Shown piece by piece: positions 12,250-53,548 of a stretch of DNA of 64,000 bases. The DNA is from an uncultured Candidatus Saccharibacteria bacterium. Its GTDB lineage: Bacteria > Patescibacteriota > Minisyncoccia > Phycocordibacterales > PALSA-1337. The DNA is taken from positions 32,356 to 96,355 of the forward strand of contig CAYWKB010000001.1 in NCBI GenBank assembly GCA_964459225.1, read 5' to 3'. The position numbers and the translations under genes were made by a program. Numbering within the stretch: the first letter of the stretch is position 1; every line of letters starts with the position of its first letter. Below the pieces are notes generated by a model. The model did no database searches. It had not been told where the DNA came from and saw nothing but the letters and a program-made list of their open reading frames with translations.

Positions 12250-12261
12250 TTATGTGGATAA
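12250..12261. promoter_or_regulatory. 12-mer TTATGTGGATAA (rc TTATCCACATAA = perfect DnaA-box consensus TTATCCACA); copy 1 of 3; second near-box TGTGGGATAAC at 12289-12299
   Basis: exact 12-mer also at 43497-43508 and 53537-53548, all intergenic, same orientation. Confidence 0.5.
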
Positions 12262-12318
12262 CTTGTTTTGATTTATCAAAACAGAAATCCCCTTGTGGGA
12301 TAACTGGGATAAGTAATA

Positions 12319-13734
12319 CTATATTGTCTCAATCAACATCATATTTGTCTCCAAAACCTTACCGAAAGGCATTCCTGATGCGATCACCACCTTATCACCC
12401 TTTGCTGCTAATTTTGATTTAATAGCTGTCTTTCTAACTACTGACATTATCTGTATGATACTTGAAAACTTTGGTACCAACACTGCATAACATCCAAATG
12501 TTAATGCTAGTTTATTTGCTGTTGTTTGATTTGAAGTTAATGCAATTATTCTTTCTGCTGGCTTATATCTTGCTATCATTCTTGCTGTTCTTCCTGATTC
12601 TGTTAATGCGACTATAAACTTTGCCTCAACACCATGTGATGCTTGTACTGCAGATTGTGATGTTATATCTGTTATACCGTGTAGATCTTGGTATTCTGCT
12701 ATTACGTCTTTTGTAAATACTTCTTTTTCAACTCTCAATGCTACACGTGTCATCATTGAAACTGCTTCAACCGGGAAATCTCCGAGTGTTGTTTCTTCTG
12801 AAAGCATTATTGCGTCAGTTCCGTCAATTATTGCATTTGCAATGTCTGAAACTTCTGCACGAGTAGGTACTGGACTCTTTATCATTGATTCCAACATTTG
12901 TGTTGCTGTTATAACAGGCTTTCCTACTGCATTACATTTTTGTATAAGCATTTTTTGTACCAATGGAACTTCTTCTGCTGGTATTTCAATTGCCAAGTCT
13001 CCACGTGCAACCATAAGACCATCAGAAAGTTTGATAATTTCATCGATATTTTCCAATGCTTCTGGTGTTTCAATCTTTGCGATAATTCCAGCCTTACTCT
13101 TTACCTTATCAAGTATTCCTCTTAGCTCTGTAATATCTGAAGGTCTACGTACAAATGAAAGAGCAATAAAATCGACTTTATTTTTAATTCCAAATTCTAG
13201 ATCCGCACGATCTTTTTCTGTGATTGAACTTATAGATAGATATGCACCTGGAAGATTTACTCCTCTTTTATTTTTGATTTCACCACCGACAATAACCTTA
13301 GTAATAACATTATTACCCTTTATATCTGTAATTTGTAATTTCTTTTTACCATCATGCAAAAGAACATAACCACCAACTTTTACTTCCTTTGGTAATAATG
13401 GATAGTTTACATATACTCTTTCCTCATTTCCCATTACCTTATCTGTTGTTAGGGTAAATGTCTGTCCCTCTTTTAAAACAATTAATCCTTTTTCAAATTC
13501 ACCAATTCTAATCTTTGGTCCTCCAAGATCTTGAAGTATGGCTATATTTTTACCTGTCTTTTCAACTACCTTTCTTAGATTTTCGACTCTGTTTTGATGT
13601 TCAGCAAAGTCTCCATGAGAAAAGTTAAGTCTCATTACATTCATTCCTGCATCAACAAGATCCTTTAACTTTTCTACCGTTTCAGTTGCTGGACCTATAG
13701 TACAAACTATCTTTGTTTTCTTGCCGTTATTCAT
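12319..13734 (-). CDS. pyk: pyruvate kinase
   Basis: KIVCTIGPA...MNVMRLNFSHG, 471 aa. Confidence 0.9.
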   Translation of the reverse strand: MNNGKKTKIVCTIGPATETVEKLKDLVDAGMNVMRLNFSHGDFAEHQNRVENLRKVVEKTGKNIAILQDLGGPKIRIGEFEKGLIVLKEGQTFTLTTDKVMGNEERVYVNYPLLPKEVKVGGYVLLHDGKKKLQITDIKGNNVITKVIVGGEIKNKRGVNLPGAYLSISSITEKDRADLEFGIKNKVDFIALSFVRRPSDITELRGILDKVKSKAGIIAKIETPEALENIDEIIKLSDGLMVARGDLAIEIPAEEVPLVQKMLIQKCNAVGKPVITATQMLESMIKSPVPTRAEVSDIANAIIDGTDAIMLSEETTLGDFPVEAVSMMTRVALRVEKEVFTKDVIAEYQDLHGITDITSQSAVQASHGVEAKFIVALTESGRTARMIARYKPAERIIALTSNQTTANKLALTFGCYAVLVPKFSSIIQIMSVVRKTAIKSKLAAKGDKVVIASGMPFGKVLETNMMLIETI

Positions 13735-13832
13735 TTTCTTATTGAAATTAATATTACTTATCTATAAATATATGGTTAATAATACGAAATGACATATTAC
13801 TATAAAATACGTCATTTTGCAAAATAGAATTA

Positions 13833-15152
13833 TTATTTAATATATTTCTTATTTATTGTAATTGAAAAGTAACCTAATGAAATAAATAAGAATCCAAGAA
13901 TAACTAAAGAGACAGGCCAGCCTATTGAGTTTGCAAAATATTCATTTGTTATATAAGAAGCAAAAGCAAGCAAAGATACAGTACTAGCGATCAATATAAT
14001 TAAACTTCTAACATATATTGATAACGCGAAGCTAAAAATAACAAGTATTAGGAAAAATATTTGCCAAGGTAATGATCCAAATATCTCTGAAAATGCAGAT
14101 CCGAGTAGACCAATAATACCTAATAAGTTTAGCGGCTTAATTAGAACCGCATTCCAAGTATCTTTAAATGAATATGATAACAATAAATAAACCGCACCGA
14201 TAACCATTGTTAGATAAACATAAATATGTGTTTCTGGACCAAGATAAGATCCCAATGTCGCACTAAGTATTGAATATAATAGAGCAGAACCATTTAAAAT
14301 AGCGAGTAAGGTTAATCTTGTATCTTTAAGACGGGTGTTAAGTGAAAGATAAAGGAAAAATATAGTTCCAAGAGAAAGAACTAATGGCCATACTGAATGT
14401 CTATAACCATATGAATAAATATTTATATATTGAATATAAACCGCTATCTGTATTCCAAAAACACCAAACAGATTAAGTATTCTTACAAGCTTATCATTCC
14501 ATCCATTTTTAAATGAATATGCTAAAAACATATACGACATACCTATAATTATAGTAAGATATGCGTACAAATTATAATAACTATTTAACATTCCTTTTGT
14601 GATAGCTTCTACCAAAAGATAGATAAATGCTGTCCCATTTGCGATAGTAAAGAAAGTCAAAATAACACTTTTATGTATTGAATTTATTATTAAATAAAAT
14701 GCAAAAATTAATCCAAAAGTAATCGCTAATGGCCATTCTGGTGGTTGTCCAGTACTAAACTCCATAAGAGTTACAAGAGCACCTCCAGGTATTAACATTC
14801 CTCCAATAAAATGGAATATTTTACCAACATCACTCTCTTTATTACTCTTATGTAAAAGTGATCCACCACCAGTAATAACTAGACCCATTCCGAGAGTAAT
14901 CAATATTCTTCCAAATGATCCTATGTAATACCATATTTGATAAGTAAATAAGATAACCCCAACGATAACAATAATTGCACCCAAAACATATAGTAACTTT
15001 GTAACAGAACTTGATGTAATAGCTGTTGAGTTTTTTAAAGGTAATTCACTTTTTATAGCATTAATTTTAGAAAGATTCACCACTTCATCGTGATTAATCT
15101 CGCCTGTATTAATTTTATTTGAGAGCTCATTTAATAATTGTTCTTTATTCAT
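13833..15152 (-). CDS. polytopic membrane protein, hypothetical
   Basis: 439 aa, >10 hydrophobic helices. Confidence 0.45.
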   Translation of the reverse strand: MNKEQLLNELSNKINTGEINHDEVVNLSKINAIKSELPLKNSTAITSSSVTKLLYVLGAIIVIVGVILFTYQIWYYIGSFGRILITLGMGLVITGGGSLLHKSNKESDVGKIFHFIGGMLIPGGALVTLMEFSTGQPPEWPLAITFGLIFAFYLIINSIHKSVILTFFTIANGTAFIYLLVEAITKGMLNSYYNLYAYLTIIIGMSYMFLAYSFKNGWNDKLVRILNLFGVFGIQIAVYIQYINIYSYGYRHSVWPLVLSLGTIFFLYLSLNTRLKDTRLTLLAILNGSALLYSILSATLGSYLGPETHIYVYLTMVIGAVYLLLSYSFKDTWNAVLIKPLNLLGIIGLLGSAFSEIFGSLPWQIFFLILVIFSFALSIYVRSLIILIASTVSLLAFASYITNEYFANSIGWPVSLVILGFLFISLGYFSITINKKYIK

Positions 15153-15173
15153 AAAAATATTTTATTTTAAATA

Positions 15174-15770
15174 TTAATTTCTATCTGGAATTACCCAACC
15201 TAAAAATTTAAAGTTATTTTGATAATTATATCTATCGTTAATATCAATTAAATTTAATTTTGACTTACTCTTACCTTTTGTAAGGTAATAACCATAAGAT
15301 GAATAACCGCCACCCACAAAAGGAAATATAAAATAATCACCTCTTCTGTCGTATGAACTAGAAATGGTAATTTGATCAGGGGAAGTTAATAAATCACTCA
15401 AAGTCATGATTTGAGCCTCTTTTAAAGATATTTCCCTACTTTCATTTTTTTGGGTGTCATGAAAAAAAATATGTTCTGAATATTTTTCGATAGAAACATC
15501 TTTATCATCTTTACCATTTTTATTCACTAATAATTTACCGTCAACAACAGAATATATTTCTTTTGAATAATCATTACAGTTATATGGATAGTGATTGTTA
15601 TTATCCATGCACATTGAATAAATAAAATTATAATTAGTCTTTATAAAAGCTGAAGGAATATAAGTTACACAAACAACTACAACAATTAGTATTATCGGTA
15701 AGGAAAAAGCCAAAAACAATGCGAAATTATCTTTTAAGATTTTTTTCATATTAACGATATTATAACACAA
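15174..15770 (-). CDS. membrane-anchored hypothetical protein
   Basis: 198 aa, N-terminal TM helix. Confidence 0.4.
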   Translation of the reverse strand: MCYNIVNMKKILKDNFALFLAFSLPIILIVVVVCVTYIPSAFIKTNYNFIYSMCMDNNNHYPYNCNDYSKEIYSVVDGKLLVNKNGKDDKDVSIEKYSEHIFFHDTQKNESREISLKEAQIMTLSDLLTSPDQITISSSYDRRGDYFIFPFVGGGYSSYGYYLTKGKSKSKLNLIDINDRYNYQNNFKFLGWVIPDRN

Positions 15771-16703: not shown

Positions 16704-16705
16704 TG

Positions 16706-16778
16706 TGCGCGTGCTAGGATTCGAACCTAGGACCCCACCAGTATCAGTGGTGTGCTCTACCAACTGAGCTACACGCGC
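16706..16778 (-). tRNA. tRNA-Ile (anticodon GAT)
   Basis: GCGCGTG acceptor, GCTCAGTTGGTAGAGC D-arm, anticodon loop CTGATAC, GGTTCGAATCC T-arm; no encoded CCA. Confidence 0.85.
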
Positions 16779-16846
16779 ATACATTAAATCCCGTATTTAC
16801 CGTCAAAATATATCAAAAATCATTACTAATAGCAATTATAAAGTTT

Positions 16847-16875
16847 AAAGGTCGCGAGTGTAAGTCGCGACCTTT
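16847..16875. terminator. perfect 11-bp-stem hairpin AAAGGTCGCGA-gtgtaag-TCGCGACCTTT with T-rich flanks (bidirectional terminator-like)
   Basis: read directly. Confidence 0.5.
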
Positions 16876-16904
16876 GTTTGTGTTTGTTCATTTGTTTGTT
16901 TTTT

Positions 16905-17129
16905 CTACCAAGGGGTTACGATACTGATAGCAAGACTTGTTATTGGTAATGTCACAAATGCTATAAACATAAGTGCACAGAACACAACCTTTGACGCAGG
17001 CTGTCTGTCAAACCAGTTAATAACTCTCCTCCAAATTGGCTTTCTGGAGAGAAAATTATCACCGCCTAGCAATAGTACCCCTTGTAAAGGAGATAACGAT
17101 GAGCTTTTCATACCTTTAACTTTATACAC
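16905..17129 (-). CDS. small membrane protein, hypothetical
   Basis: 74 aa, C-terminal TM. Confidence 0.35.
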   Translation of the reverse strand: MYKVKGMKSSSLSPLQGVLLLGGDNFLSRKPIWRRVINWFDRQPASKVVFCALMFIAFVTLPITSLAISIVTPW

Positions 17130-17174
17130 CCTAATATTGATTATGTCAAATAAATTAAGTTATTAATCATTAAT

Positions 17175-17206
17175 AAAAAAGCACCCAGCATGGTCAATGC
17201 GGGTGC
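17175..17206 (-). terminator. hairpin GCACCC-N14-GGGTGC followed (minus strand) by TTTTTT
   Basis: read directly, 30 nt after stop of 17234-18316 ORF. Confidence 0.55.
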
Positions 17207-17233
17207 TTGTTATCATCGGAGGATGATGTTTAT

Positions 17234-18316
17234 TTAGTGAACTCCATCATCGGAATGATCGTAGAGGTCAAACTTAATTCTCATTCTACCATCAATTGGT
17301 AACTTACCCTTTTTCGGTAGTAAATACCCTACATGATTATCTCTAGGCAGCATGATTGCTCCAAATCCATGCTGAAATCCTTTACTTACTAGTGAGGGGT
17401 ACTTCGTTTTCCATTTCTCATGCTCATCTTCAGGATGAATACAAAGAGAAAAATTAGACGAACTTCCTCCTCCCTGCATTGAATTAATGTGAAGTGTTGG
17501 GATATCAAATCTCCAAGTGGCTACCCTATGTTGCTGGTCACGAGGAATACATCCAAGAACATCATTTTGTCGTTCCCCGTGAAGTAGCATTCCAAATAAG
17601 TAGCGTCTGACAGCGACAATATTATTCTGATCACTGTTATAAAGCCGTAAAAGGACTTCATCGCGTGCTCCATAAGACAATACTTTTGTTAAACACCCAT
17701 CACCCCTCCACCATTTTGTAGCGTTATAGCTCTGCATGAGACCTTGAAATCTATTTTCGTGGGAAAATCTTGTAGTCTTTTCCCATTCAGACAAGTTTTC
17801 CTCAAGATCAGGCAATATACTATAGAGTTTACTTAACACATCATCAGTGTGTTTAGCATGTCGATTTCGAGCAAACTTCTCCAGATCATCAACAGAGTGT
17901 GTAAGACCCCATATAATCATTGGTAATGTGATATATGGATCAAAGATGACTGCTGTGACTGGTGTAGTCTGATCTAGTGGAAATGATTCACCTTCAATCG
18001 TTTTTCCATATACTAGTGCATTGTACAATTCACTATAAGCATGTTCATGACCATCACGCCTAAGCTTAGCCAACAGACTCAGCATAACCCCAACACTTTT
18101 ACCATGATCGCTCCAGTCGCTTACCACCTTAGATGGTAGTGTGTTCACTCCTAAAAATGAATAGGAAGATTTACGGAAATACCGCCTACAATATTTAAAC
18201 GCATTATTATCGGTAAGTTTTTCGCGAAGCAGTTCCAACTGCTTCTCTCTACTTTTTTTACTAGGTGCAAAGACTCCAGGCAATTGATTCATAAAAAAAT
18301 CCATCTGAAGTGACAT
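17234..18316 (-). CDS. hypothetical protein, compositionally atypical (GC ~40%, Trp/His/Arg-rich)
   Basis: 360-aa ORF without recognisable motifs; GC clearly above genome background; located just downstream of 16S terminator. Confidence 0.45.
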   Translation of the reverse strand: MSLQMDFFMNQLPGVFAPSKKSREKQLELLREKLTDNNAFKYCRRYFRKSSYSFLGVNTLPSKVVSDWSDHGKSVGVMLSLLAKLRRDGHEHAYSELYNALVYGKTIEGESFPLDQTTPVTAVIFDPYITLPMIIWGLTHSVDDLEKFARNRHAKHTDDVLSKLYSILPDLEENLSEWEKTTRFSHENRFQGLMQSYNATKWWRGDGCLTKVLSYGARDEVLLRLYNSDQNNIVAVRRYLFGMLLHGERQNDVLGCIPRDQQHRVATWRFDIPTLHINSMQGGGSSSNFSLCIHPEDEHEKWKTKYPSLVSKGFQHGFGAIMLPRDNHVGYLLPKKGKLPIDGRMRIKFDLYDHSDDGVH

Positions 18317-18669: not shown

Positions 18670-20289
18670 AATTGAAATAATCCACGAGCAGCTTCCGCTA
18701 CCCGTGCCTTGTTACGACTTACTCCCTGTCATTGAGCTTACCTTAGGCCACGACAAGCGTAGACTTCGGGTATTCCCAACTCCCTTGAGTTGACGGGCGG
18801 TGAGTACAAGACTTGAGAACGTATTCACCGCAGTATAGCTGACCTGCGATTACTAGCAATTCCAACTTCATGAGGTCGAGTTGCAGACCTCAATCCGAAC
18901 TGGGGATAGCTTTATAAGGATTTGCTCCATCTTTCGACTTTGCGTCCTGTTGTACTATCCATTGTATCACGTGTGTAGCCCAGGGTATAAGGGACATGCT
19001 GACCTGGCGTCATCCTCACCTTCCTCCCACGACGCAGCAAACAATTTTACAGAGGTTAGGAAAAATTGGTTCACATCACTTGCGTGCGTAGTAACTTTTT
19101 ATATCTCTTACGAGCTATAAAAAGTTCTCCGCACCGGATGTTCACTCAATTTTTCATCATCTCAACAAAATTCCGCACTGTGTCGTGGGCAGTCTCGCCT
19201 GACAAATATAACAGACAACGAGGGTTGCGTTCGTTACCCCACTGAAGGGAACAACTCAAGCCACGAACTGACGACGGCCATGCATCACCTGACTAACTGT
19301 CTTGCGACGCCAAAAGTTTCTTCTTGGCTTCAGCTAGATTAAACCCTGGTAAGGTTCTTCGTTTATCATCGAATTAAACCACATGATCCACTGCTTGTGC
19401 AAGTCCCCGTCTATTCCTTTGAGTTTTAACCTTGCGGTCGTACTACCCAGGCGCTTCTCTTAACGCGTTAGCTACGCCACTCAGAGGGTCGATACTCCGA
19501 ATAGCTAGAGAAGATCGTTTAGGGCGTGGACTACTGGGGTATCTAATCCCATTCGCGACCCACGCTTTCTTGTTTCAGTGTCAGGAGTGCTCTAGTCTGC
19601 TGCCTTCGCTTTTGGTGTTCCCCATAATATCAACGCATTTTACCGCTACACTATGAGTTCCGCAGACCTCTCGCATCCTCTAGTCATACCGTTTCCCTTG
19701 CATGCCCCCGGTTAAGCCGAAGAATTTAACAAGAGACTAATATAACCACCTACACAACCTTTACGCCCAATGATTCCGGATAACGCTTGAGGCACTCGTA
19801 TTACCGCTGCTGCTGGCACGAGTTTAGCAACCTCTTATTCGCCAAGTACTATCAATAAACTTTCTCCCTGGCAAAAGAACTTTACATGCCTAAGCACTTC
19901 ATCGTTCACGCGGCGTCGCTCCGTCAGACTTTCGTCCATTGCGGAAGATTCTCGACTGCGGCCACCCGTAGGTGTATGGACCGTGTCTCAGTTCCATCGG
20001 TGGGGGTCACCCTCTCAGGTCCCCTAGGCGTCATAGCCTTGGTGAGCTTTTACCTCACCAACTAGCTGATACCGAGCAGGCTCATCTTGAAGCGATAAAT
20101 CTTTAGTCTTTCGACACCATCAAGTATTAACTCATCTTTCGATGAGGTATTCCTGACTTCAAGGTTGATACCTACTTATTACTACCTCGTCTGCCACTGA
20201 CTATATATTGCTATACAGCCCGTTTGACTTGCATGCCTTATCCACGCCGCCAGCGTTCATCCTGAGCTAGGATCAAACTCTTAACTAAA
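18670..20289 (-). rRNA. rrs: 16S rRNA (about 1620 nt) with ~140-nt AT-rich expansion in helix 40 (plus coords ~19030-19175) and non-canonical 3' tail lacking CCUCC
   Basis: rc matches AGAGTTTGATCCTAGCTCAG (20262-20281), GTATTACCGCTGCTGCTGGCAC, GGACTACTGGGGTATCTAATCC, ACGGGCGGTGAGTACAAG, CCTTGTTACGACTT; flanking leader/trailer complementarity (18481-18507 vs 20290-20330). Confidence 0.9.
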
Positions 20290-20535
20290 ATGAACGGAAC
20301 AAAATAGAAAACAGTAATACTTAAATTATAGCTTTTATCTTGATCTTGTTTTAGATGATATAGAGTTCAAACTTCGCTCCCGTTAATGTGAATAAATTAA
20401 CTTGGAATCATTTTAAAATAAACATTAAACTTGCACGCATTCAATATCATTTGAATTCGAATACGTTCTTTAATGCACAACTTACTAAATTGTCGAAAAA
20501 CTCATTAAATTCGCCTTACTTAAGGCGTAGGTAGT

Positions 20536-30206: not shown

Positions 30207-30321
30207 CTTTGTACTGGCGACTAGCTACTTTCCCCTTCATATGAGTATCATCGCCGCAACTGCGTTTCACTTCCGTGTTCGGAATGGGAACGGGTGTTTC
30301 CACAGCGCCAAATCACCAGAA
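30207..30321 (-). rRNA. rrf: 5S rRNA
   Basis: rc contains GCGTTTCACTTCCGTGTTCGGAATGGGAACGGGTGTTTCC matching conserved 5S core. Confidence 0.8.
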
Positions 30322-30720
30322 CAAAAAATTCAATCTGTTGATAAAAATTCAGATAAACAAAAGCTTATCGAATTTTAATAAATAAAGGTTTGTGCTTGTT
30401 ATAGACAAGTAATTGTGGTTCTTAAATTTCCTAATAGGATCGACGGATTAGTACTTCTCAGCTTAACATATTACTATGCGTACACCTAAAGCCTATCAAC
30501 GTAATCATCTCTTACGGGTCTCAAACGATTCCTAATCTTGGGGTTGGCTTCCTTCTTAGATGCTTTCAGAAGTTATCCATTCCGAACATAGCTACACTGC
30601 GATGCTCTTGGCAGAACAGCAGTCACACCAGAGGTTCGTTCAATTTGGTCCTCTCGTACTAAAATCAAATCCCCTCAAGAATCAACGCCTGCAGTAGATA
30701 GGAGACCAACCTGTCTCACG

Positions 30721-31276
30721 CTTGTTATCATAGATTACTCTATGCAATGGACTATAGCTTCACCTTCTTACGAAGGTTGTTAACGTTTAGTCTCTACGGG
30801 TGTTTATGAGTTTTGAAGAGAAGGCGAGACACAAGTTCCTGAGCTTTCGCCCCTCGTCCCCTAGGGGACTCTTAGGCGTGATTCCTTCGGATACGCCTAG
30901 CAATACATGTGCCTCACCAAAATTTGAGAACAAAAATTCTCTACAAAACTCACAAACTTCCCTCGGTATTATCCCTTTTTCATGGACTTCCACCGATTTT
31001 AGTTAACTTGATCTTTCTTATATTACTATAAGTGACCGCCGTGTTTGATTGATCTACTTCCTATACTTTTATTTTGTATAAATGTTACTTTATACTTTTC
31101 TTAAACGAAAAACTCGAAGTGATTCAGACTGTTCAATTGTTATAATTGCTTTACAAAATTATATTTCTCAAAATACTCGCATACTTTTCTGCTGAAAAGT
31201 TGCTCTTCTCGGCGCCAAGCGCCTGCGAAAGGTATTTTTCGAAACAAATTTTGCTCCGCTTAGTCATCACAACTAA
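30721..31276 (-). ncRNA. group I-like intron in 23S at E. coli position ~2593 (between ...AGACCGU and CGUGAGACAG), ~556 nt, no convincing homing-endonuclease ORF
   Basis: exon sequences contiguous in E. coli are split here; 5' exon ends in U, insertion ends in G; internal GCGG can pair with exon CCGU (P1 with U.G); known hotspot for group I introns. Confidence 0.55.
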
Positions 31277-31942
31277 ACGGTCTGAACCCAGCTCGCGTAA
31301 CTTTTTAATTGGCGAACAGCCAAACCCTTGGAAGCTTCTCCACCTCCAGGATAAGTTGAGCCGACATCGAGGTGCCGAACTGCGCCGTCGCTATGAACGC
31401 TTAGGCGCAACCAGCCTGTTATCCCTAGAGTAGCTTTTGGTCCGATAATCTTCCCCCGCGTCTAATGCGTAAGGTCGGTTCACTATGTTCTGCTTTCGCA
31501 TCTGTTCGACAAGTACGTCTTACAGTCAAGCCAGCTTATGCCATTACACTATCGGCACGGTTTCCATTCGCGCCTAGCTGACCTTAATAAACTCCTCCGT
31601 TACTTTTTAGGAGGATAGCGCCCCACTAAAACTGCCCGCCAGATTCTGTCTCTTGCCGTTTTTGCCGTCAAGGTTAGAATATATATTTTTTAAGAATGGT
31701 ATTTCACTGTCGGATCCATCTTCCCCGAAAGAAAAACTTCAAATCCTCCCATCTACGCTACGCATAAAAAACATATAGTCAAAATCAAGTTGCAGTAAAG
31801 CTTCTAGGGTCTTTTCGTCTAACTGCAGGTAATCGGCATCTTCACCGATATTGTATTTTCACCGAGCAAGTCTCCGAGACAGTTCTCCAGACATTACACT
31901 ATTCGTGCGCGTCAGAACTTACCTGACAAGGAATTTCGCTCT

Positions 31943-32194
<252 letters not shown>

Positions 32195-32997
32195 CAGGGC
32201 TTACAACAGTCAGCTTGATATAATCGCACCGCCGTTGTTTGACCTTCTGGCATTGGTCAAGTGTCACCCCCTATACATCCTCTTACGAGTTCGCAGGGAG
32301 CTGTGTTTTTGATAAACAGTTGCCAGAGATACTTTAGCTGCGGCCCTTCTTGCGAAGGGCAAGCCTTATTCCGAAGTTACGGCTGATTTTTTGCCGAGTT
32401 CCTTGGAGACCTCTCACTCGTTCGCCTTGGTCTACTCGACCTGAACACCTGTGTCGGTTTGCGGTACGGTTCCTGCATAGATAAGTTTAGAAGATTTTCT
32501 TGGAAGCGCGCTTTATAACATCTAAAAGGGCGAACCCCTCTATTTTCACTCTACTCGGAATTGTCATCAAAGACATTACCCGGATTTTCCTGGGTAAATT
32601 CCCTATAGCATGAACTCAAATCCAATAATGAGCGTCATATACTGCACTCCGTCCCTTCATCACTCTATACAAAAGTCATGGAATATTAACCATGTGTCCA
32701 TCGGGTGCGGTTTTCACCATCCCCTTAGGCCCGACTAACCCTTGGCTGATTTACATAGCCAAGGAAACCTTGTTCTTTCGGCGTGCCGGATTCTCACCGG
32801 CATTGTGGTTACTTGTGCCAACATTCTTACTTCCAAACGCTCCAGCATGGCTCACGCCTTTGCCTTCAACGCAGATTGGAATACTCTCCTACCACTGTAT
32901 ATTATCGAAATAAAATACAATCCTCAGTTTCGGTATCATGTTTAACCCCGATTATCTGCGGCGCAGAATCTCTCGATGAGTGAGCTGTTACGCTTTC

Positions 32998-33029
<32 letters not shown>

Positions 33030-33602
33030 TCATTGTTTGAGAAATTCAACCACCTTAAGCGTACTTAACATGAATTTAGGGACCTTAAATGGAGATCTAG
33101 GCTGTTTCCTTTTTGACGTATGGAGCTTAGCCCCCACCGTCTAACTGCTGAATAATTTAACCTCTGTATTCGGAGTTTGATAGGTCTCGTGATCTTTCGA
33201 CCTGTCGAGACCTTCCAGTGCTCTACCCCAGAGGGGTACATTCAACGCTAGCCCAAAAGCTATTTCGGAGAGAACCAGCTATTACCAGATTCGATTAGCT
33301 TATCACTCCTTACCTCAAGTCATCGCAGAGAATTGCACAACTCTAGCGTTCGGACCTCCCTTTCCACTTCTGAAAAGTTCATCCTGCTCAAGGCAAGCTC
33401 ATCTGGCTTCGGGTCTGATGCATACTACGAACGCGCTATTCACACTCGGTTTCCCTGTGGCTCCAGTCTCTCGACCTTAGCCTGCAGCATGCTTCAACTC
33501 GTTGGCTCATTCTTCAATAGGCACGCAGTCGAGGTATTGCTACCTCTTCTACTCCTTGTAAATATATGGTTTCAGGTCTATTTCATCGCCCTTACCGGGC
33601 TG

Positions 33603-33642
<40 letters not shown>

Positions 33643-34545
33643 TTCTAGAATATTTAGCCTTACCGGTTAGTTCCGGCAGATTCCCCCGAGCTATTCGTGT
33701 CTCGAGGTACTCAAGAATAGGAACAAAAAAGATCTTTTGATTTCGACTACAGGGCTATCACCTTCTGGGGCTAAGCTTTCCAGCTTATTCTTCTATCAAA
33801 AAATTTTGTAACTTTTCTGTTATAAATAACACGTTCCTACCTTACTACCCCCAACCTTTATCGCACGATAGGACATGAGAGACATTGCTGTCCCCCAAAA
33901 TTCCTATAGCACGATAAAGGTTGAGTTTGGGCTCTTCCGCTTTCGCTCGCCGCTACTTACGAAATTCTTATTTAGTCTCTATTCCTCCAGGTACTGAAAT
34001 GTTTTACTTCCCTGGGTGCGCATTCAAATATCAAGTACTTGAATTCTGACTCGAGGTCAGAGGGTTTCCCCATTCGGAGTCTTCCGGATCAAAGGTTGCT
34101 AGGCACCTCCCCGGAAAATATCGTCGCCATGCCACGTCCTTCATCGCTTCTTAGAAGCCTAGGCATCCACCATATACTCTTAAATTTCCCATTAGGAAAT
34201 CTAAAAACCACAATTATTTGTCTACAACTTACAACATACTATTTAATGTATATATTCGAAAAAACCCTAACATATATACATCTTATAGTATTACCTTTAT
34301 TTATCACTCAGTAACTTCCTGATTGTTGAAATTACTGAGTTATTTAATTGTCAATGTTTCTGTCATTATGTTATTGAATTTTTCATTTCAATTTTACAAA
34401 AAAATCGCTTTATTAAGCGACCTTTCCTAACACCGTTTTAAAGCGTTATTATGGCCGTTTAAATAGTGAAGTTTTTAACATATTTCTGTGTAAGGGATAG
34501 TGTATACGAAGGTGAAATTAAAGTCAATAGCGATACATAAAATAG

Positions 34546-34601: not shown

Positions 34602-35294
34602 TTACTCTTTATCTGAAATAGCTCTGATTGTCTTTTCAACTATCTCTCCCGCTGCCTCCTTTCCTCCTAATCCAAATGACAATCCTAGTGCTAGAGCAAT
34701 AGCTACTATTATTCCCATAAACAATGTATTTAGAAGTGTTTGAGCAATACCTAGTTGGTATAATGCTGCTAAGACTGCAAATACCCATATTGACCACTTT
34801 GCTACTGCGCCAAGCATTAATGCTGACTTAATATGTGCAGCACGTGCTGAAGCAACAACTATTCTGTGTACTGCATCAGCTATAACTGCTGATACCATAA
34901 TTACAAGAACTGCTACTATAACATTTGGTAAATATGAAAGAACAACACTCTTTAGAAAATCATTTACTTGCTGTAGTCCTAGAACATCAAATGATGCAAC
35001 CAAGAAAACCACAATGATAAACCACTTTATAAGTGATCCAACAAATCTTCCTGAGTTAAGCTTATGTCCTGATCTCTCAACAACATCCTCTAGACCTGCT
35101 GTCTTAAGAGCTTGATCTATTTTGAATGTCTTAAATAGACCTTCGATTAATTTTTCAACTAATGCTGCCAATATCCAACCGATAGCAAAAATGATTATCG
35201 CTATTACAAGTGTTGGTAAAAAGTCTGCAATACCAAACCATATACTTTGTAATGACTGTGTAAATACGACACCCCAATTTTCTACAAAATTCAT
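34602..35294 (-). CDS. membrane protein with tandem conserved-TM-helix repeats (mechanosensitive-channel-associated type)
   Basis: 230 aa, repeated hydrophobic helix units. Confidence 0.4.
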   Translation of the reverse strand: MNFVENWGVVFTQSLQSIWFGIADFLPTLVIAIIIFAIGWILAALVEKLIEGLFKTFKIDQALKTAGLEDVVERSGHKLNSGRFVGSLIKWFIIVVFLVASFDVLGLQQVNDFLKSVVLSYLPNVIVAVLVIMVSAVIADAVHRIVVASARAAHIKSALMLGAVAKWSIWVFAVLAALYQLGIAQTLLNTLFMGIIVAIALALGLSFGLGGKEAAGEIVEKTIRAISDKE

Positions 35295-35348
35295 AATTTA
35301 AATTAAATTAGCCTTGTTAATAATTACTAATACAATAATTATAACATT

Positions 35349-35975
35349 TTATTTATTTAGAATTCCAAGCTTATCCACAAGTATAGTATGTGGTGAATCT
35401 AAAATATCTCTAATCAATCTATCGTGAATACCTAACCTGTATTCAAAATCTGTAGTTTCAAATGCTGAATATGCTATTTCCCTCCCTATTTCTGATTCTA
35501 TATTTTTAATAACGATTTCTAATTTACTCATATTTAAATCATCTCCAACTATAAGCAAATCGACTCTAGAATCCCATTCTTGTATAAAAAGACCTGAAGC
35601 GAGGAATAATTTCATCTTTCCTGCTGTGCCAATTTTTCTAACCAAACTATCATCTGCATGTAGACTTGCTGTAATTAAGAGATTTTTAAGTGATTGTAAA
35701 TAAGGAAATTTTGTATCTAAAACATAGCCGACATCATTTAACTTTTTTATAACAACCTTTTTACCCTTTTTCTGATGTATCTCTCTAGTAATATTTCTCT
35801 TTTTAATTAGACCAATATTTAGCAGTATTGTGATTTCCTTTTTTATGTCTTTTATATTTGATTTTGACCTTTCTACAATATCAACAATCGGATATGCTAT
35901 ATCAGTATTAAATAGGAACATTCTCATTATTTTGACCTTGGTGGCGTTTCCGAATAACTTTTCTAGTATTTCCAT
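35349..35975 (-). CDS. hypothetical protein, possible winged-helix regulator
   Basis: 208 aa, N-terminal HTH-like segment. Confidence 0.3.
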   Translation of the reverse strand: MEILEKLFGNATKVKIMRMFLFNTDIAYPIVDIVERSKSNIKDIKKEITILLNIGLIKKRNITREIHQKKGKKVVIKKLNDVGYVLDTKFPYLQSLKNLLITASLHADDSLVRKIGTAGKMKLFLASGLFIQEWDSRVDLLIVGDDLNMSKLEIVIKNIESEIGREIAYSAFETTDFEYRLGIHDRLIRDILDSPHTILVDKLGILNK

Positions 35976-40223: not shown

Positions 40224-41216
40224 TTATTTACGTAAACTATTAACATAATTATATACTATTGCTGACAATTCAGATATAACAGATTCTAATTCTTTAAAGT
40301 CATGACCTTTAGTCATAATACATATTAGGTATGGTCTTTGTGGATAATATACTATTCCACAATCATGTAGCTCTCTATCTTGTACCTTATTATCCTCTAA
40401 TTCATAAGTATGTTCACCAAATTTATGAGCTACAACAATATCTTTTGGAATACCAGAAATTATACCTTTATTAAAGGTGGTCTTTGTTAGTAAATCTAAT
40501 GCCTTTTCAGACATTTCTCTTGATAGATATGTAGAGTTATACAATGCCCTAAGTAGGGATGAATACGATCTAGGTGACATAAACCCATCTACATCATCCA
40601 AATTATTTGCTAGTGGCAACTGAAATGTTTTATATGCCTTATTAAAAATGTTTTCACTATCCTGTTTATCAAATATACTAAGTACAGTATTGTCAGAATA
40701 TATAATCATCTGCTTTATCAGCTCGTCAAATGTGTAATTTCCAACACTTAATATTTTTTCTGGTGGATAATTTTGCCCATAGTCTTTATCGTATTTATAA
40801 AACAACTTCTTTGAGAGCAAACCTTCTACATCCTGTGATTGTCTGTAATAACTCATCATTCCCAAGACTTTTAACATACTTGATGGATGATATTTAAAAT
40901 CCTCATTAACTCCAGTCCAGTGACCAGAGTTCATGTCTCTATAATATACTGAGATTGACTCAGCCTTATTTTCTTTTGTGCTTTTTTTAATATAATTCTG
41001 TAAATCACTATCTAAAACACTAAACTCATCTTCATAAAAAAGCTTACTGATTCTATAGAATAATAGTGGGTTTATATACTTATAATCTTTTGAATTTTCT
41101 CTGACTTCAACTGGTATTGGTGCTTTATATTCAGTTCTACAATAAATAATCCCAATAAATATTCCGACTATAAGAATGGTAATAAATGATAGTATTTGTA
41201 TTCCGGTTTTTTTCAT
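40224..41216 (-). CDS. class A beta-lactamase-like serine hydrolase, membrane-anchored
   Basis: HPSSMLK (S-x-x-K), YSDN (SDN), HKFGE (KTG-like) motifs; N-terminal TM. Confidence 0.55.
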   Translation of the reverse strand: MKKTGIQILSFITILIVGIFIGIIYCRTEYKAPIPVEVRENSKDYKYINPLLFYRISKLFYEDEFSVLDSDLQNYIKKSTKENKAESISVYYRDMNSGHWTGVNEDFKYHPSSMLKVLGMMSYYRQSQDVEGLLSKKLFYKYDKDYGQNYPPEKILSVGNYTFDELIKQMIIYSDNTVLSIFDKQDSENIFNKAYKTFQLPLANNLDDVDGFMSPRSYSSLLRALYNSTYLSREMSEKALDLLTKTTFNKGIISGIPKDIVVAHKFGEHTYELEDNKVQDRELHDCGIVYYPQRPYLICIMTKGHDFKELESVISELSAIVYNYVNSLRK

Positions 41217-41360: not shown

Positions 41361-43262
41361 TTAGAACGCAACTAGAGGTGTAGTCAATGACTCTAGACCA
41401 TAAGTTATACTGTATGTTCTTGGAGTTGCAATGTTTGTAAGATCTGTAAAGTAAACTGAACTGATCTTAACTGTACCTGTCTTTGTTGTGTTATCACGTG
41501 TTGTATCGATTGTACTCTGGTATGTGAATGTTCTTGATCCACCAGCTGGGATAACATACATTGTTGATGTATCTCCTGAAACAACTGCCTCAGACACAAC
41601 TGTGTTTGCCCATGGTTGAGTTGTTGTAGCTGCAAATGTTGTTGTTGTTCCTAGAGCGATGTTTCCATCCTTTGAAACATACAAATCATTTGTACCTGTG
41701 TTGTTAAACTTGAATGTGAATGCGAATGTCTTCTTAACAACAGCTGAGTTACCGTTATCAACAGGAGTAACTACTACTGGTGACACTATACCTGTAACTG
41801 AAGCTCCGTTTGAAAGGAATGTCAAGTCACTTGATGTAACTGTATTAGCTCCTGAAGCTGTAACTGTTGTGTAATTACTATCAACACCAACAATGTTTGT
41901 TGTGTTTACTGTAATTGTTGTTGAAGCTATTGCTCCGTTTACAAAATCATCCTGATCAGCAACGTCTGCCATCAATGTGATTGTCTTCCATGAATCTTGT
42001 GGTAGATCTATTGTTAGATTTGAGAACACAGATGATGTAGCAACTGAATCTACATTGTACTTTGTAGCACCGTCAACAATGTACAATCTCTTGAACATAG
42101 TTGAGAAAGCTCTGTTTCTACCATTATCCTTCAATGTGAAAGTTAATGTGTTGATTGTAGAAGCTCTATTTTCTGACTTAAAGTCATATCTTCCAAGAAC
42201 AACATTTGATGTTTCACCAGATGTTGATGTTGTTTGTATACCTGTTGAAGGTGAATTTGGAGCGATCTTTACAAGGATGTTTCCTGTTGATCCTGATGAT
42301 GACAGTGTAGCTGTTCTACCTGTTGTACCAGAAACAGCAACTGTTCCTAGACCGATTGAATCTGTGTATCCCTTTCCGTTAAGAGTTCTGATTGAACCAT
42401 TTGGAACTGATACTATTACAGAAACATCTGATGATAGCTTGTCTGTTGTAGACAATACTGTTCCAGAAACAACCATTGTTCTGTCTGTACCTGGTGTAAC
42501 AACTGCATTGATACCTTCGAATCTTACTAGGTAGTCTGATCCAACTGTAATTTCAGTTGCGTCAGCTGCACTTGAAAGAGCCTTTGTAGCAACTACTGTT
42601 CCGTTACTATCCTTCAATGTAATTGTACTGAAGTACAACCATGGACGTGTATTGAATCTTACATCGAATCTTGTAACTGAAACTGGAGCAGCTGTAGCTT
42701 GAAGCTTAACAGCAACCAAGTCCTTTGTCTCACCCTTCTTTATTGTTACGTTTGATGCATAACTTGATAGAGAAGCTGTAAGAGATCCGTCTGTACCATC
42801 CATTACTAGAGCAGTTGGAGTAACTGGTGTTACTACTGTTCCTGGATTAGCTGTACATGTAAATCCTACTGGACATGCTGTTGTTGAAACTGTTGCTGAT
42901 GTTCCATTTAGAACTCCTCTTGTAAGAGGTCCTACGAATCCTGTACTTGGAAGACCAACACTAGCTTGATATGCAGAAACTGCTGACTTTGTCTGTGAAC
43001 CAAAGTATCCTGGAGCTACTGCCTTTGAACTAACAGCCTTGATATCAAAGCCCTTGCTTATAAGAAATGCTTGTAGAGCAGATACGTCTGCACCTGTACT
43101 ACCAACACTTAGATTTGCGTTATATGCTGCATTAACTGATGCTGCTCCTACGAGTGCAACTGTCAAAGCTATAACACTTGAAACTATAGTTTTCTTCATA
43201 ATAAATTTTATAATTAAATAATCTTTCTTTCGGTTAATTAATAATGTTGAAAGAAAAATCAT
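41361..43262 (-). CDS. cell-surface protein: signal peptide + peptidoglycan-binding domain (PG_binding_1-like) + long Thr/Ser/Val-rich beta-rich region; likely real start MKKTIVSS at ~43202
   Basis: GSTGADVSALQAFLISKGF...YFGSQTKSAVSAYQASVGL repeat pair typical of PG-binding domain; 633 aa. Confidence 0.5.
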   Translation of the reverse strand: MIFLSTLLINRKKDYLIIKFIMKKTIVSSVIALTVALVGAASVNAAYNANLSVGSTGADVSALQAFLISKGFDIKAVSSKAVAPGYFGSQTKSAVSAYQASVGLPSTGFVGPLTRGVLNGTSATVSTTACPVGFTCTANPGTVVTPVTPTALVMDGTDGSLTASLSSYASNVTIKKGETKDLVAVKLQATAAPVSVTRFDVRFNTRPWLYFSTITLKDSNGTVVATKALSSAADATEITVGSDYLVRFEGINAVVTPGTDRTMVVSGTVLSTTDKLSSDVSVIVSVPNGSIRTLNGKGYTDSIGLGTVAVSGTTGRTATLSSSGSTGNILVKIAPNSPSTGIQTTSTSGETSNVVLGRYDFKSENRASTINTLTFTLKDNGRNRAFSTMFKRLYIVDGATKYNVDSVATSSVFSNLTIDLPQDSWKTITLMADVADQDDFVNGAIASTTITVNTTNIVGVDSNYTTVTASGANTVTSSDLTFLSNGASVTGIVSPVVVTPVDNGNSAVVKKTFAFTFKFNNTGTNDLYVSKDGNIALGTTTTFAATTTQPWANTVVSEAVVSGDTSTMYVIPAGGSRTFTYQSTIDTTRDNTTKTGTVKISSVYFTDLTNIATPRTYSITYGLESLTTPLVAF

Positions 43263-43496
43263 TTATAAACTGATAAACCTACTGATAATTGATAATCTAA
43301 TTTCACCATTTCCCAATGCCTTGTTATCGACACAAGGCAAAAGGATTAGGCTATAAGGATTTTAGTCTGAATTTCTATCTTTAACTAACAATAAAGGTAT
43401 GGGTAAATTCGGTATTTATAACTCAATTAAATTGTCAACGAACCAAAACCGTAACTGCAGAATATTATACATCTAAATGTACGTAAACTGCAAAAG

Positions 43497-43508
43497 TTAT
43501 GTGGATAA
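43497..43508. promoter_or_regulatory. TTATGTGGATAA 12-mer (DnaA-box containing), copy 2
   Basis: exact match to 12250-12261 and 53537-53548. Confidence 0.5.
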
Positions 43509-43675
43509 CTAGGGGTTTTTGGCCATAAAGACCACATCGGTATATTACACAAAATAAGGTCGAAAGTCAATAATATACAGCTCATAATATATATAGTGTG
43601 GGATCAATTGATAATATGGCTAATTTAAGCCATATACCGGTATTTAAGATCAGGATATGATCTTGTAATCAGAGT

Positions 43676-44335
43676 CTATATTAATGAATACTTACTCCAT
43701 CTCCTTTCCCCCTCTTTCTTGATTAAACCCCTAGTAACCATATCTGTCAGCTCCCTTTGTATGGTCTTTTCACTGCAATCTGTTATCACTTTAACGAAAT
43801 CTTTTATGGTCAGATTTGAATTATTTTTTAATAGATTTATTATACTTTCCTGCCTATCTTTTTTAGGCATTTTGCCTATAGTATTTGAAGTATTTTTAAC
43901 ATTAAAACTTGATGATTTATTTTGATTATTTTTAAAATTATCTATAGACATTTCACCACTATTGTCAGTAGCAAAATAACTATTTGAAAGTACATATCCA
44001 GATAGCTCCTCCAGTGAATTGCGATTTTTCTCAATGTAAAGTTTTAATTGATTTAATTCAGTAGAGATTACATTAGTATTCATTATTGAAACCTGCTTTG
44101 ATAACTCCAAAATCTTAAGTAATGAATTAATCTTATTCAAAGAATTAATAAAAAGGTTATAAGCATAGTCCTTTTCGCTTGTTATTGGTGAATACATAAT
44201 ATGAGAATTAGAGACAAAGCTTATTGCCTCCTCGCGTATCTCCCACTTAATACAGTCACTGTCTTTTATGTTGTCTGTGATTAAATATATTGCAGATACG
44301 ATTCTTTCTGACTTTTGTACTATATAATTACTCAT
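43676..44335 (-). CDS. putative transcriptional regulator with C-terminal winged-helix HTH
   Basis: C-terminus KDRQESIINLLKNNSNLTIKDFVKVITDCSEKTIQRELTDMVTRGLIKKEG = DeoR/HTH_11-like. Confidence 0.4.
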   Translation of the reverse strand: MSNYIVQKSERIVSAIYLITDNIKDSDCIKWEIREEAISFVSNSHIMYSPITSEKDYAYNLFINSLNKINSLLKILELSKQVSIMNTNVISTELNQLKLYIEKNRNSLEELSGYVLSNSYFATDNSGEMSIDNFKNNQNKSSSFNVKNTSNTIGKMPKKDRQESIINLLKNNSNLTIKDFVKVITDCSEKTIQRELTDMVTRGLIKKEGERRWSKYSLI

Positions 44336-51551: not shown

Positions 51552-51554
51552 ATT

Positions 51555-52202: not shown

Positions 52203-52250
52203 AATACTGTCATTTTAGCATAAAAATATGTTATCGTTAAACATATCAAT

Positions 52251-52925
52251 ATGCAGGAAAATACATGGGAAAATGAATACAGAGACCCCAAACTCATTAG
52301 TTTAAGTAATGAGCCAGCTAAGTGCGTAAAGGATTTTGTTAGATTTATAAGAAAGGATAGAAATCTCGAATTATCTAATTTAAATATTCTTGACCTGGGC
52401 TGTGGCAATGGCAAAAATAGCTTTTATATAAGTGAGCACGGTTTAAATAATAAAGTTTGTGGTATTGATATTTCAGAAACCGCAATCAAATACGCTCGTG
52501 AATTAAATAACAATGGTAATTTTATAAAAGGAAGTATTGGAAATAAATTACCTTTTGATAATGAGAGCTTTGATATTGTTTTAGATATCACCTCTTCAAA
52601 TTCACTTAGCGAGACTGAGAGACAAGTATATTTAAATGAAATAAAAAGAGTTATTAAGCCTAGTGGATATTTATTTATAAGAACACTTTGTAAAGACGGT
52701 GATCAAAATGCAAAAAATCTAATTGAAACATTTCCAGGAAAAGAAAAAGATACATATATAATGCCAGATATTAATCTGACCGAGAGAGTTTGGAGTAAGG
52801 AAGATTTACTCAACTATTATAGCGATTTTGAATTATTATATTTAAAAAAAGAAACACATTACACTAAATTTAATAATAGGTCTTATAAGAGGAATTTTTG
52901 GATAGGGTGTTTTGTTAGAAAGTAA
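52251..52925 (+). CDS. class I SAM-dependent methyltransferase
   Basis: ILDLGCGNGKNS motif I. Confidence 0.7.
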   Translation: MQENTWENEYRDPKLISLSNEPAKCVKDFVRFIRKDRNLELSNLNILDLGCGNGKNSFYISEHGLNNKVCGIDISETAIKYARELNNNGNFIKGSIGNKLPFDNESFDIVLDITSSNSLSETERQVYLNEIKRVIKPSGYLFIRTLCKDGDQNAKNLIETFPGKEKDTYIMPDINLTERVWSKEDLLNYYSDFELLYLKKETHYTKFNNRSYKRNFWIGCFVRK

Positions 52926-52952
52926 TTTATAGAACAATTAAATTATACAAAC

Positions 52953-52980
52953 AAAAATCCCGCCATAAGCGGGAGATTTG
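52953..52980. terminator. hairpin ATCCCGC-cataa-GCGGGAG-AT with flanking A/T runs (bidirectional, between MTase and pilin)
   Basis: read directly. Confidence 0.55.
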
Positions 52981-52999
52981 TAATATCTTTTAAAAAATA

Positions 53000-53473
53000 T
53001 TATGAACAGACCACAACTCCGCTACCTAAGTTTGCATTTCTTGATTCTGATTTACCTGAACTATCAACACACCAGAAACCTCCACTTGGAAGATTAGCTG
53101 ACACTGCCCATGCTGTTGCAGTTGCCTGACAACTTAGCAATGTTCCATTTGGCCATGCTCCTGCTGTACCAGTTACGGCAATCAAACCTGAAGCATTATC
53201 GATAAACATTCCACCAGTACATGGTAGAGCGGGTAAAGCCATAACTGAAGCAGCGTAACCATTATTATTCGCATTAGCAAACAGCTCAGCACCTGTTCTT
53301 ACAGTTGCAAGTTGCTCTTTAACTTTTGTATCACTAGCCTTGTTTCTCGCAGTTGAAAGTGAAGCCAAAACTACTGATGACAAGATACCGATGATTGCTA
53401 TAACAACTAGCAACTCGATCAATGTAAAACCTCTTTGTAAATATGTTTTATTCATAACGTATAAATTAACCAA
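53000..53473 (-). CDS. pilA: type IV major pilin (PilA-like); likely start MNKTYLQRGFTLIEL (7th codon of track ORF)
   Basis: GFTLIELLVVIAIIGIL class III signal + two C-terminal Cys. Confidence 0.85.
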   Translation of the reverse strand: MVNLYVMNKTYLQRGFTLIELLVVIAIIGILSSVVLASLSTARNKASDTKVKEQLATVRTGAELFANANNNGYAASVMALPALPCTGGMFIDNASGLIAVTGTAGAWPNGTLLSCQATATAWAVSANLPSGGFWCVDSSGKSESRNANLGSGVVVCS

Positions 53474-53536
53474 AAACTTATTAATAATTAAACTTATAGC
53501 TATAAGTATAGCAAATATAGAAATGTCTGTTAAACG

Positions 53537-53548
53537 TTATGTGGATAA
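53537..53548. promoter_or_regulatory. TTATGTGGATAA 12-mer (DnaA-box containing), copy 3, ~65-85 nt upstream of pilin start
   Basis: exact match to copies at 12250 and 43497. Confidence 0.5.

Follow-up and report, generated by a model that had tools for sequence, protein, structure and literature searches.

Type IV pili are central to the epibiotic lifestyle of bacteria of the Candidate Phyla Radiation (CPR, or Patescibacteria) and to their DNA uptake. How the genes of this group are regulated is almost unknown, and a recent perspective on Patescibacteria contains no mention of promoters, regulons or transcription factors (PMC11665869). We analysed a stretch of 64,000 nucleotides (nt) of contig CAYWKB010000001.1, from an uncultured bacterium deposited as Candidatus Saccharibacteria, in which perfect DnaA boxes stand singly upstream of a type IV pilin gene and of other genes, and we asked what such a box does there and which protein would read it. 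The whole stretch is called the window, and coordinates are positions in it.

Copies of the motif in the window

An exact search found the 12-mer TTATGTGGATAA three times on the forward strand, at 12250-12261, 43497-43508 and 53537-53548, and all three copies are intergenic. Its minus-strand reading, TTATCCACATAA, consists of the canonical DnaA box TTATCCACA followed by TAA. The genes that adjoin the copies all lie on the minus strand, with TTATCCACA oriented towards the downstream gene each time; on that strand the order is pyk, box and radC; a gene for a 219-residue winged helix-turn-helix (wHTH) protein, box and the gene of a PG_binding_1 (peptidoglycan-binding) protein; and pilC, box and the pilin gene. 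A preliminary description of the window had listed these three intergenic, co-oriented copies, a near-box beside the radC copy and a box upstream of the pilin gene, and had judged the copies to exceed chance. All of this is borne out: TTATCCCACAAGGGGAT lies at 12284-12303, the pilin ATG (53455) is 81 nt from the 12-mer, and in 100 dinucleotide-preserving shuffles the 12-mer occurred 0.06 times on average and never three times.

The genome is AT-rich, and one exact 9-mer lies in coding DNA, within a beta-lactamase-like gene (40339-40347, minus strand); both facts would suit an origin of the three copies by chance, or as remnants of dispersed repeats or mobile elements. Apart from the shuffling result, however, an alignment of 320 nt around the copies confined their identity to the 12-mer, so that the flanks are unrelated and the copies do not form a dispersed repeat; nor do they show the flank similarity, often with terminal inverted repeats, of miniature inverted-repeat transposable elements or repetitive extragenic palindromes. 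Moreover, more than 80 loci, described below, retain the box at the orthologous site while neighbouring bases vary, which leaves chance or repeat remnants with practically no probability. The coding 9-mer has no promoter context and is therefore itself probably a chance or coding occurrence. In total, the window holds five exact copies of TTATCCACA, against 0.99 expected, and its boxes are single and spaced 8-31 kb apart.

Beyond the window's own organism the exact 12-mer was found nowhere except at the corresponding sites of the PG-binding and radC genes in the two closest relatives, and the TAA extension is thus lineage-specific. The base right after the 9-mer (position +1) varies among relatives. 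Judged from these alignments, the conserved unit is the 9/10-mer (G)TTATCC[A/C]CA. It is absent from other strong promoters of the window (among them those of rRNA, rplJL and the pilM operon, and other extended -10 promoters) and is therefore no general promoter element; the other competence genes of the window (the pilM operon, comFC, recA and ssb) also lack it. The sequence TTATTCACA at 20387-20395, in the rRNA leader, was not counted as a box, since it lies downstream of the rRNA promoter and its geometry does not match.

The box at pilin promoters

In the window, box 3 (TTATCCACA, 53540-53548, minus strand) occupies about -51 to -43 of the major pilin promoter. The core promoter, at 53505-53533 on the same strand, comprises the -35-like hexamer TTAACA (53528-53533), a 17-nt spacer and the extended -10 element TGCTATACT (53505-53513), and downstream lies the target, a type IV major pilin gene (53000-53455, minus strand) with the N_methyl domain and a GFTLIE motif.

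Orthologous boxes were found in relatives, for which we took the best 80 pilC matches (65-82% identity) in a species-representative genome collection. All 80 are metagenome-assembled genomes labelled Taylorbacteria, Paceibacteria, Parcubacteria or Patescibacteria, many of them in one deposited set labelled 'uncultured Candidatus Saccharibacteria'. Of the 80 species, 69 have a pilin gene next after pilC, and these 69 pilC-pilin spacers, with a mean length of 138 nt, were analysed. When all 9-mers in them were counted without bias, TTATCCACA ranked first, ahead of the -10 element itself; it is present in 49 spacers, against 0.04 by shuffling, and TTATCCCCA, which carries C at position 7, is present in a further 16. 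A forward box of one form or the other is found in 65 of the 69 spacers, one more spacer has an inverted box, and three have only degenerate ones. Outside the box and the -10 region, the spacer sequence is not conserved among the relatives.

Box and TATAAT-like hexamer are separated by 28-34 nt in 64 of the 66 cases, most often by 31-33 nt. In 68 pilin promoters aligned on the -10 element, TG stands at -15/-14 in 67; this column had not been selected, and the promoter call is thereby independently validated. The best -35 match reaches at most three of six positions in 53 of the 68. The pilin promoters thus have the make-up of the extended -10, sigma-70-type class, in which TGn joins a TATAAT-like hexamer and the -35 element is dispensable, and TGn is also seen at window sites 1, 3 and 4. 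Information profiles of the 68 promoters show conservation of only the box, a T-rich spacer and TGnTATAAT, without any conserved second half-site; at box position -1, likewise unselected, G is found in 72% of sites and C in 24%. As predicted from these alignments, the pilin promoters are extended -10 promoters, essentially -35-less, with the box at about -52 to -44.

Inverted perfect boxes also occur, 27-40 nt upstream of the -10 element, before the second pilin genes of four relatives (L019, L020, L037 and L072) and before the first pilin gene of another (L029). Other genes that lie downstream of a box in relatives encode an AAA ATPase inserted after pilC, a transposase and a 523-residue signal-peptide protein.

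Other genes behind a box

Box 2 (TTATCCACA, 43500-43508, minus strand) lies upstream of the promoter of the gene for the PG_binding_1 surface protein. The core promoter of this gene (43464-43493, minus strand) consists of TTGCAG (43488-43493), an 18-nt spacer and TATAAT (43464-43469), with a gap of 30 nt between box and -10 element; a conserved 5' leader of about 258 nt (43200-43457) and the gene for the secreted protein itself, with its ATG at 43199, follow at 41361-43457. Relatives came from a metagenome scan with the 633-residue protein, which gave 16 loci, and from four more syntenic loci reached through the MscS-like neighbour. Of these, 12 distinct loci are at least 41% identical and have upstream sequence to examine; all 12 keep gagTTATCCACA, followed by a TTTGCA-like -35 element and by TATAAT at a gap of 29-31 nt. 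Across nine aligned upstream regions the only invariant blocks are GTTATCCACA and TATAAT, and GTTATCCACA is also found upstream of the PG-binding gene in L104-L107; distant homologues, with 35-40% identity, have no box at this position. In several of these relatives the following gene, for another signal-peptide protein, is preceded by a box of its own with TATAAT 31 nt further on; in two (L084 and L085) the box at that place is inverted.

Two further features surround box 2. Just upstream of it is a second promoter-like element, TTGACT-17-TAATAT (43528-43570, minus strand), followed by a partial inverted box (GTGGATT in relatives); most orthologous regions keep this element, and its distance from the main box varies. 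Within the leader, eight genomes have in common the block GGTTCGTTGACAATTTAAT and a hairpin (43310-43345) with the invariant loop GUGUCGAUA and three covarying pairs. Rfam gave no match to the site 2 region at E<=1, and nothing at the box sites at gathering threshold over the window. The leader of the PG-binding mRNA is possibly a new cis-regulatory RNA or a second operator.

Box 4 (35371-35379, plus strand) is an exact 9-mer that the preliminary description did not contain. It is inverted with respect to its target and lies in the last codons of an upstream open reading frame (ORF) for a 208-residue wHTH-like protein, 27 nt upstream of the extended -10 element TGTTATAAT (35338-35346) of an MscS-like gene (34602-35294). 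The arrangement of TGTGGATAA, 27-28 nt and TGnTATAAT is kept in L104-L106 and, with one mismatch, in L107; because the box is inside the end of the upstream ORF, protein-coding constraint may contribute to its conservation.

Box 1 (TTATCCACA, 12253-12261, minus strand) lies between the pyk stop codon and radC (11420-12151, minus strand), which encodes a RadC JAB domain and a conserved N-terminal part. TTATCC[A/C]CA is present between pyk and radC in six of six relatives (L021, L024 and L099-L102; RadC 63-73% identical). The upstream region (12196-12239, minus strand) contains TGATAAAAT at 12231-12239, 16 nt after TCCACA, and a conserved T-run hairpin at 12196-12227. Reading the sequences by eye, we found the layout TCC[A/C]CA-16-TAAAAT-like in all seven genomes, often with TGn before the hexamer, and the T-run hairpin after the box in four of the seven. 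In three relatives (L100-L102), TATAAT stands 6-7 nt before the radC ATG, which resembles a leaderless mRNA. The geometry at radC is unlike the box-to-(-10) gap of the other sites: with a TAAAAT-like hexamer 16 nt after TCC[A/C]CA, the radC box would overlap a -35-like position. The box may serve here in activation from a distance or in repression of the promoter that it overlaps.

Some observations on radC and its surroundings stand apart from the box. The N-terminal (UPF0758_N) part of radC in the window (11998-12151, minus strand) is an open frame without ATG, GTG or TTG, and the TTG start of the L099 gene corresponds to TTA in the window; the window radC would be either N-terminally truncated (192 residues, as publicly annotated), started at ATT or ATA, or decaying. 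A module, TTATCCCCGCAAGGGGGATTCCCGGAG, stands directly before the box of radC in L100 (9845-9880) and L101 (9866-9925) and of the pilin gene in L016 (about 10020-10070). It forms a GNRA-looped hairpin whose own 5' arm is a near-box, and the TTATCCCACAAGGGGAT segment near radC in the window is related to it.

Enrichment of the box at promoters

To place these sites in a wider context, we counted the motif in a pool of 104 sources totalling 1.616 Mb, of which 91% is coding by a longest-ORF heuristic; a few of the loci share an assembly with another. TTATCCACA occurs 116 times, and 93 of these copies are intergenic (80%, against 9% non-coding DNA in the pool); 57 have TGnTAnnnT at 26-36 nt in the forward arrangement and nine in the inverted arrangement only. 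The C7 form, TTATCCCCA, occurs 45 times, 27 of them intergenic, with 19 forward arrangements and no inverted ones. Single-substitution controls show no intergenic enrichment: TTATCCTCA has one intergenic copy among 17, TTATCCGCA one among 12, TTATCGACA three among 26 and TAATCCACA two among 12, and none of the four has a promoter-like arrangement in either orientation. Forward orientation is strongly favoured over inverted across the pool. The preliminary description had named equal frequency in coding DNA as the outcome that would speak against a regulatory motif, and the pool shows the opposite.

Conservation at orthologous sites, promoter position and intergenic enrichment together indicate a real gene-control site. 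These comparisons identify (G)TTATCC[A/C]CA as the cis-regulatory operator that defines a small regulon in CPR bacteria of the Paceibacteria type, with predicted targets that comprise the major and further pilins, the secreted peptidoglycan-binding protein, another signal-peptide surface protein, the MscS-like membrane protein and radC. At most of these targets, a single asymmetric box is seen 28-34 nt upstream of what appears to be an extended -10 element without a good -35 element, usually facing the gene and occasionally inverted. The suggestion, made in the preliminary description, of promoter-associated regulatory sites is upheld by both the orthologous conservation (pilin 65/69, PG-binding 12/12, radC 6/6) and the set distance upstream of the extended -10 element.

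The strong orientation bias, the narrow spacing to the -10 element and the lack of -35 elements could also be accounted for if RNA polymerase itself read the box, through an UP-like element bound by its alpha subunit or a distal element for a special sigma factor, with no regulator involved. However, 28-34 nt is far beyond the -35/-10 geometry of the sigma-70 family, inverted copies occur at the same type of promoter 27-40 nt from the -10 element, and the element contains GC rather than resembling an A/T tract; it is moreover absent from the rRNA, rplJL and pilM operon promoters. We therefore regard direct reading by RNA polymerase as very unlikely. The -35 element of an alternative sigma factor, with its fixed orientation and 15-19-nt spacer, was likewise rejected in view of the 28-34-nt spacer and the inverted copies.

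Which protein reads the box

The 9-mer TTATCCACA is the DnaA consensus (PMC8203912), and the three copies and the box at 35371-35379 fall in the DnaA box class, defined by asymmetric TTATCCACA or the relaxed TTWTNCACA. The gaps to the -10 element (28-34 nt at pilin genes, 29-31 nt at PG-binding genes and 27-28 nt, inverted, at MscS-like genes) put the box beside the promoter, where a bound protein could influence RNA polymerase, as would be expected of a DnaA-regulated promoter. In a direct comparison of sequences, the unselected G at -1 matches boxes R1, R2 and R4 of E. coli oriC; the 10-mer GTTATCCACA is identical to R1 and R4, and R4 reads GTTATCCACAG, as do many CPR sites. A lone asymmetric element of 9-10 bp without a second half-site fits binding by domain IV of DnaA and would be unusual for dimeric regulators. 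Auxiliary partial boxes, in assorted spacings and orientations, accompany some sites (for example, L101, L052, L026 and the PG-binding gene sites). DnaA of canonical specificity is expected to occupy a perfect box of the R1/R4 type, whatever other factor binds. Since the sequence is that of a canonical high-affinity DnaA box, we infer that domain IV of DnaA is the most likely binder, and we consider the chances that DnaA is the reader to be about even.

Several observations weigh against DnaA. TTATCCCCA is outside the relaxed consensus TTWTNCACA, yet it is frequent, and the A at position 7 is essential for E. coli DnaA; A7 and C7 forms coexist in one genome (for example, L087, L102 and L049). 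A literature search on TTATCCCCA as a variant of the DnaA box returned only primer-type matches. The boxes are mostly single, with weak clustering, and in B. subtilis DnaA binds stably in vivo only where boxes are clustered. Two of the targets have a winged-helix gene immediately upstream, and small proteins with only the domain IV signature of DnaA exist, at least in phage contigs. Finally, the known DnaA regulons (dnaA, nrd, sda, gcrA, ftsZ and others) are without pilins or surface proteins (PMC8203912).

These points would be met by a dedicated, non-initiator regulator of a pilus and surface regulon, either the 219-residue DeoR-like protein, the 208-residue protein or a paralogue consisting of domain IV only, the match to the DnaA box being convergent or inherited through duplication of domain IV. 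The targets (pilins, secreted and membrane proteins, and radC) do resemble a surface or competence regulon rather than replication genes, and the C7 form at 27 intergenic sites is atypical for DnaA. The candidate encoded directly upstream of box 2 (43676-44335, minus strand) has a weak C-terminal DeoR-like winged helix and is syntenic in relatives, as wHTH genes are with two of the targets; it has in common with the 208-residue protein (35349-35975), also encoded directly upstream of a box-bearing gene, the short motif K-x-I-x-[RK]-E-[LI]-T ... GLIKK. Neither protein has a significant family match or an informative homologue in PDB or NCBIfam, and their wHTH matches in Pfam and NCBIfam are below threshold, which counts against this candidate pair. 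Typical winged-helix regulators, moreover, bind dyads or direct repeats, whereas no second half-site is conserved here, and no wHTH gene adjoins the pilin site or the radC site.

A domain IV paralogue would have precedents, as many viral contigs (L110-L229) encode proteins of 80-230 residues with GGRDHTTV and without the AAA+ part, so that stand-alone HTH proteins of the DnaA-box type are common in phages; small proteins of about 100-230 residues with the domain IV signature thus occur in nature. A degenerate GGRDHTTV scan of these contigs yielded nothing beyond small domain IV proteins of phage type and unrelated DnaA genes, and a DnaA profile scan gave one unrelated match. No domain IV signature, however, was found in the 1.6 Mb of the window and related loci. 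In addition, ten positions of the box, including the unselected -1 G, match E. coli R1/R4, so DnaA would bind anyway and cross-talk would follow. On balance, we consider a dedicated regulator a possible but less likely reader. The preliminary description had offered DnaA or another regulator with the same core: the promoter-site part of that proposal is supported by the sequences, and neither protein is singled out by them.

If DnaA is the reader, a mechanism can be sketched from position only. A monomeric helix-turn-helix protein, most likely domain IV of DnaA, would bind the box at about -48, just upstream of the seat of sigma region 4, from where the bound protein could contact RNA polymerase through sigma region 4 or the alpha C-terminal domain. 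Such a contact would help to recruit RNA polymerase to extended -10 promoters without a -35 element, resulting in activation, for which DnaA at the high-affinity nrdAB boxes of E. coli serves as a model; at those boxes DnaA activates by stabilising RNA polymerase, and high DnaA-ATP represses (PMC8203912). Repression might likewise set in when occupancy is higher, or at radC, whose box and -35-like hexamer overlap. As a consequence, expression of pilus, surface and DNA-uptake genes would be tied to the status of replication initiation.

An improbable role in replication

Boxes that serve replication, as pieces of an origin, as a datA-like titration site or as a DARS (DnaA-reactivating sequence)-like site, would lie at promoters only incidentally. 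The sequence is indeed that of a DnaA box, and the window may adjoin a terminus, as the GC skew changes sign at about 10 kb. The boxes, however, are single and tens of kb apart, without a cluster of three or more at the sites and without dnaA, and neither a fixed distance to the -10 element nor conservation before the same genes in dozens of species would be expected of titration. We thus consider a replication role extremely improbable. Neither the window nor the 104 related loci contain a DnaA signature (Walker A, LIDDIQ or RDHTTV type), and an oriC-type array of boxes is absent from the box sites and from every related locus; six loci have three or four boxes within 400 bp, most of them single-mismatch 9-mers, and auxiliary boxes show only a weak excess (GTGGAT, 10 observed against 3.1 expected). 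An oriC was therefore rejected: unlike E. coli oriC, the sites are isolated, scattered single boxes without array, unwinding element or nearby dnaA or dnaN. The preliminary description had seen no full oriC in any of the sites either, in agreement with the lack of a box cluster and of a dnaA signature. The boxes also differ from datA- or DARS-type loci in that their position is tied to the -10 elements of specific genes.

As for the chromosomal setting, a weakly positive GC skew between 4 and 10 kb gives way to a negative one beyond 10 kb, where gene orientation also switches, and these two changes suggest that the replication terminus may lie near 10 kb. In one complete relative (OY969557.1), the pilC locus is at about 0.46 of 0.88 Mb.

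Comparison with known systems

In H. influenzae and S. pneumoniae, radC is a member of the competence regulon. Competence and pilus regulons (CRP-S/Sxy, ComK boxes and the ComX cin-box) likewise place one short motif on pilin and radC-type genes, but their motif sequences and architecture are unrelated to those described here, and the pilM operon, comFC, recA and ssb have no box in the window. The profiles of the 68 pilin promoters show neither the CRP-S dyad TGCGA-N6-TCGCA nor ComK pairs AAAA-N5-TTTT nor the cin-box TACGAATA at the -10 position. The monomeric activators MarA, SoxS and Rob also use an asymmetric site just upstream of the -35 region, with orientation linked to promoter distance; marboxes, however, are about 20 bp long, degenerate and bipartite, whereas the element here is 9-10 bp and conserved, and no AraC-family gene was seen.

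A close likeness is to promoters controlled by DnaA (E. coli dnaA and nrdAB, B. subtilis sda, and Caulobacter gcrA, ftsZ and mipZ), where, as here, TTATCCACA stands beside the promoter (PMC8203912). The sites described here differ in that they are mostly single boxes, tolerate C7 and accompany extended -10, -35-less promoters, with DnaA binding as a prediction. Their targets (pilins, surface and membrane proteins, and radC) are in none of the described DnaA regulons, and our literature search found no link of DnaA boxes to pilins, to Patescibacteria/CPR or to competence. DnaA as a transcription factor is known; the regulon, the promoter architecture and the phyletic setting are new.

We tentatively propose, with confidence a little short of even, that in Paceibacteria, and perhaps in CPR bacteria more broadly, DnaA serves as the master transcriptional activator for the major type IV pilin and further envelope genes, binding lone high-affinity boxes near -48 in promoters without a -35 element. 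If so, attachment to the host and uptake of DNA would be coupled directly to the state of replication initiation, in a counterpart of the DnaA control of nucleotide supply (nrd) in organisms unable to make nucleotides, and the role of DnaA as a transcription factor would extend to genes of the cell surface and host interaction. In a more exotic version, a paralogue derived from DnaA domain IV would have taken over the activator role. DnaA is a concrete candidate regulator that exists in every genome. A 10-bp operator at pilin and surface-protein promoters of at least 65 species-level genomes would provide the first defined regulon and promoter architecture for the group, and box, about 31 nt and TGnTATAAT would make a simple rule by which highly regulated surface genes could be sought across thousands of genomes of uncultured organisms.

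Further features of the window

A possible box 5 is TTTTCCACA at 663-671 (minus strand), with one mismatch. It stands 15 nt before the promoter TTGACA-17-TGCTATAAT, the two together occupying 620-671, with a box-to-(-10) gap of 37 nt, outside the usual 28-34. The surrounding segment (251-671, minus strand) runs from this consensus promoter through a GC-richer unit of about 300 nt, with a possible 46-residue ORF, to a strong terminator at 288-335; downstream of it is a minor pilin gene with TATAAT 7 nt before its ATG, possibly giving a leaderless mRNA.

The window has a GC content of 31%, and many of its genes have no Pfam matches. Its rRNA genes are unlinked (with their surroundings, at 18670-20288, 30212-34196 and 16705-18316), the 16S gene lying about 10 kb from 23S-5S, and the 23S gene spans 3769 nt against 2925 nt in the Rfam model, corresponding to about 840 nt of insertions. 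All these traits are in keeping with a CPR bacterium, and its pilC relatives make it one of the Paceibacteria/Taylorbacteria type. A tRNA-Ile gene follows the 16S gene after 1.9 kb, and between the two is a 360-residue ORF of no recognised family; in one relative the equivalent region has LAGLIDADG genes. Finally, a 90-nt tRNA-Ser gene (62488-62577, minus strand) has the anticodon ACU, with A at position 34; bacteria normally read AGY codons with GCU, and a tRNA-Ser with ACU is unusual.

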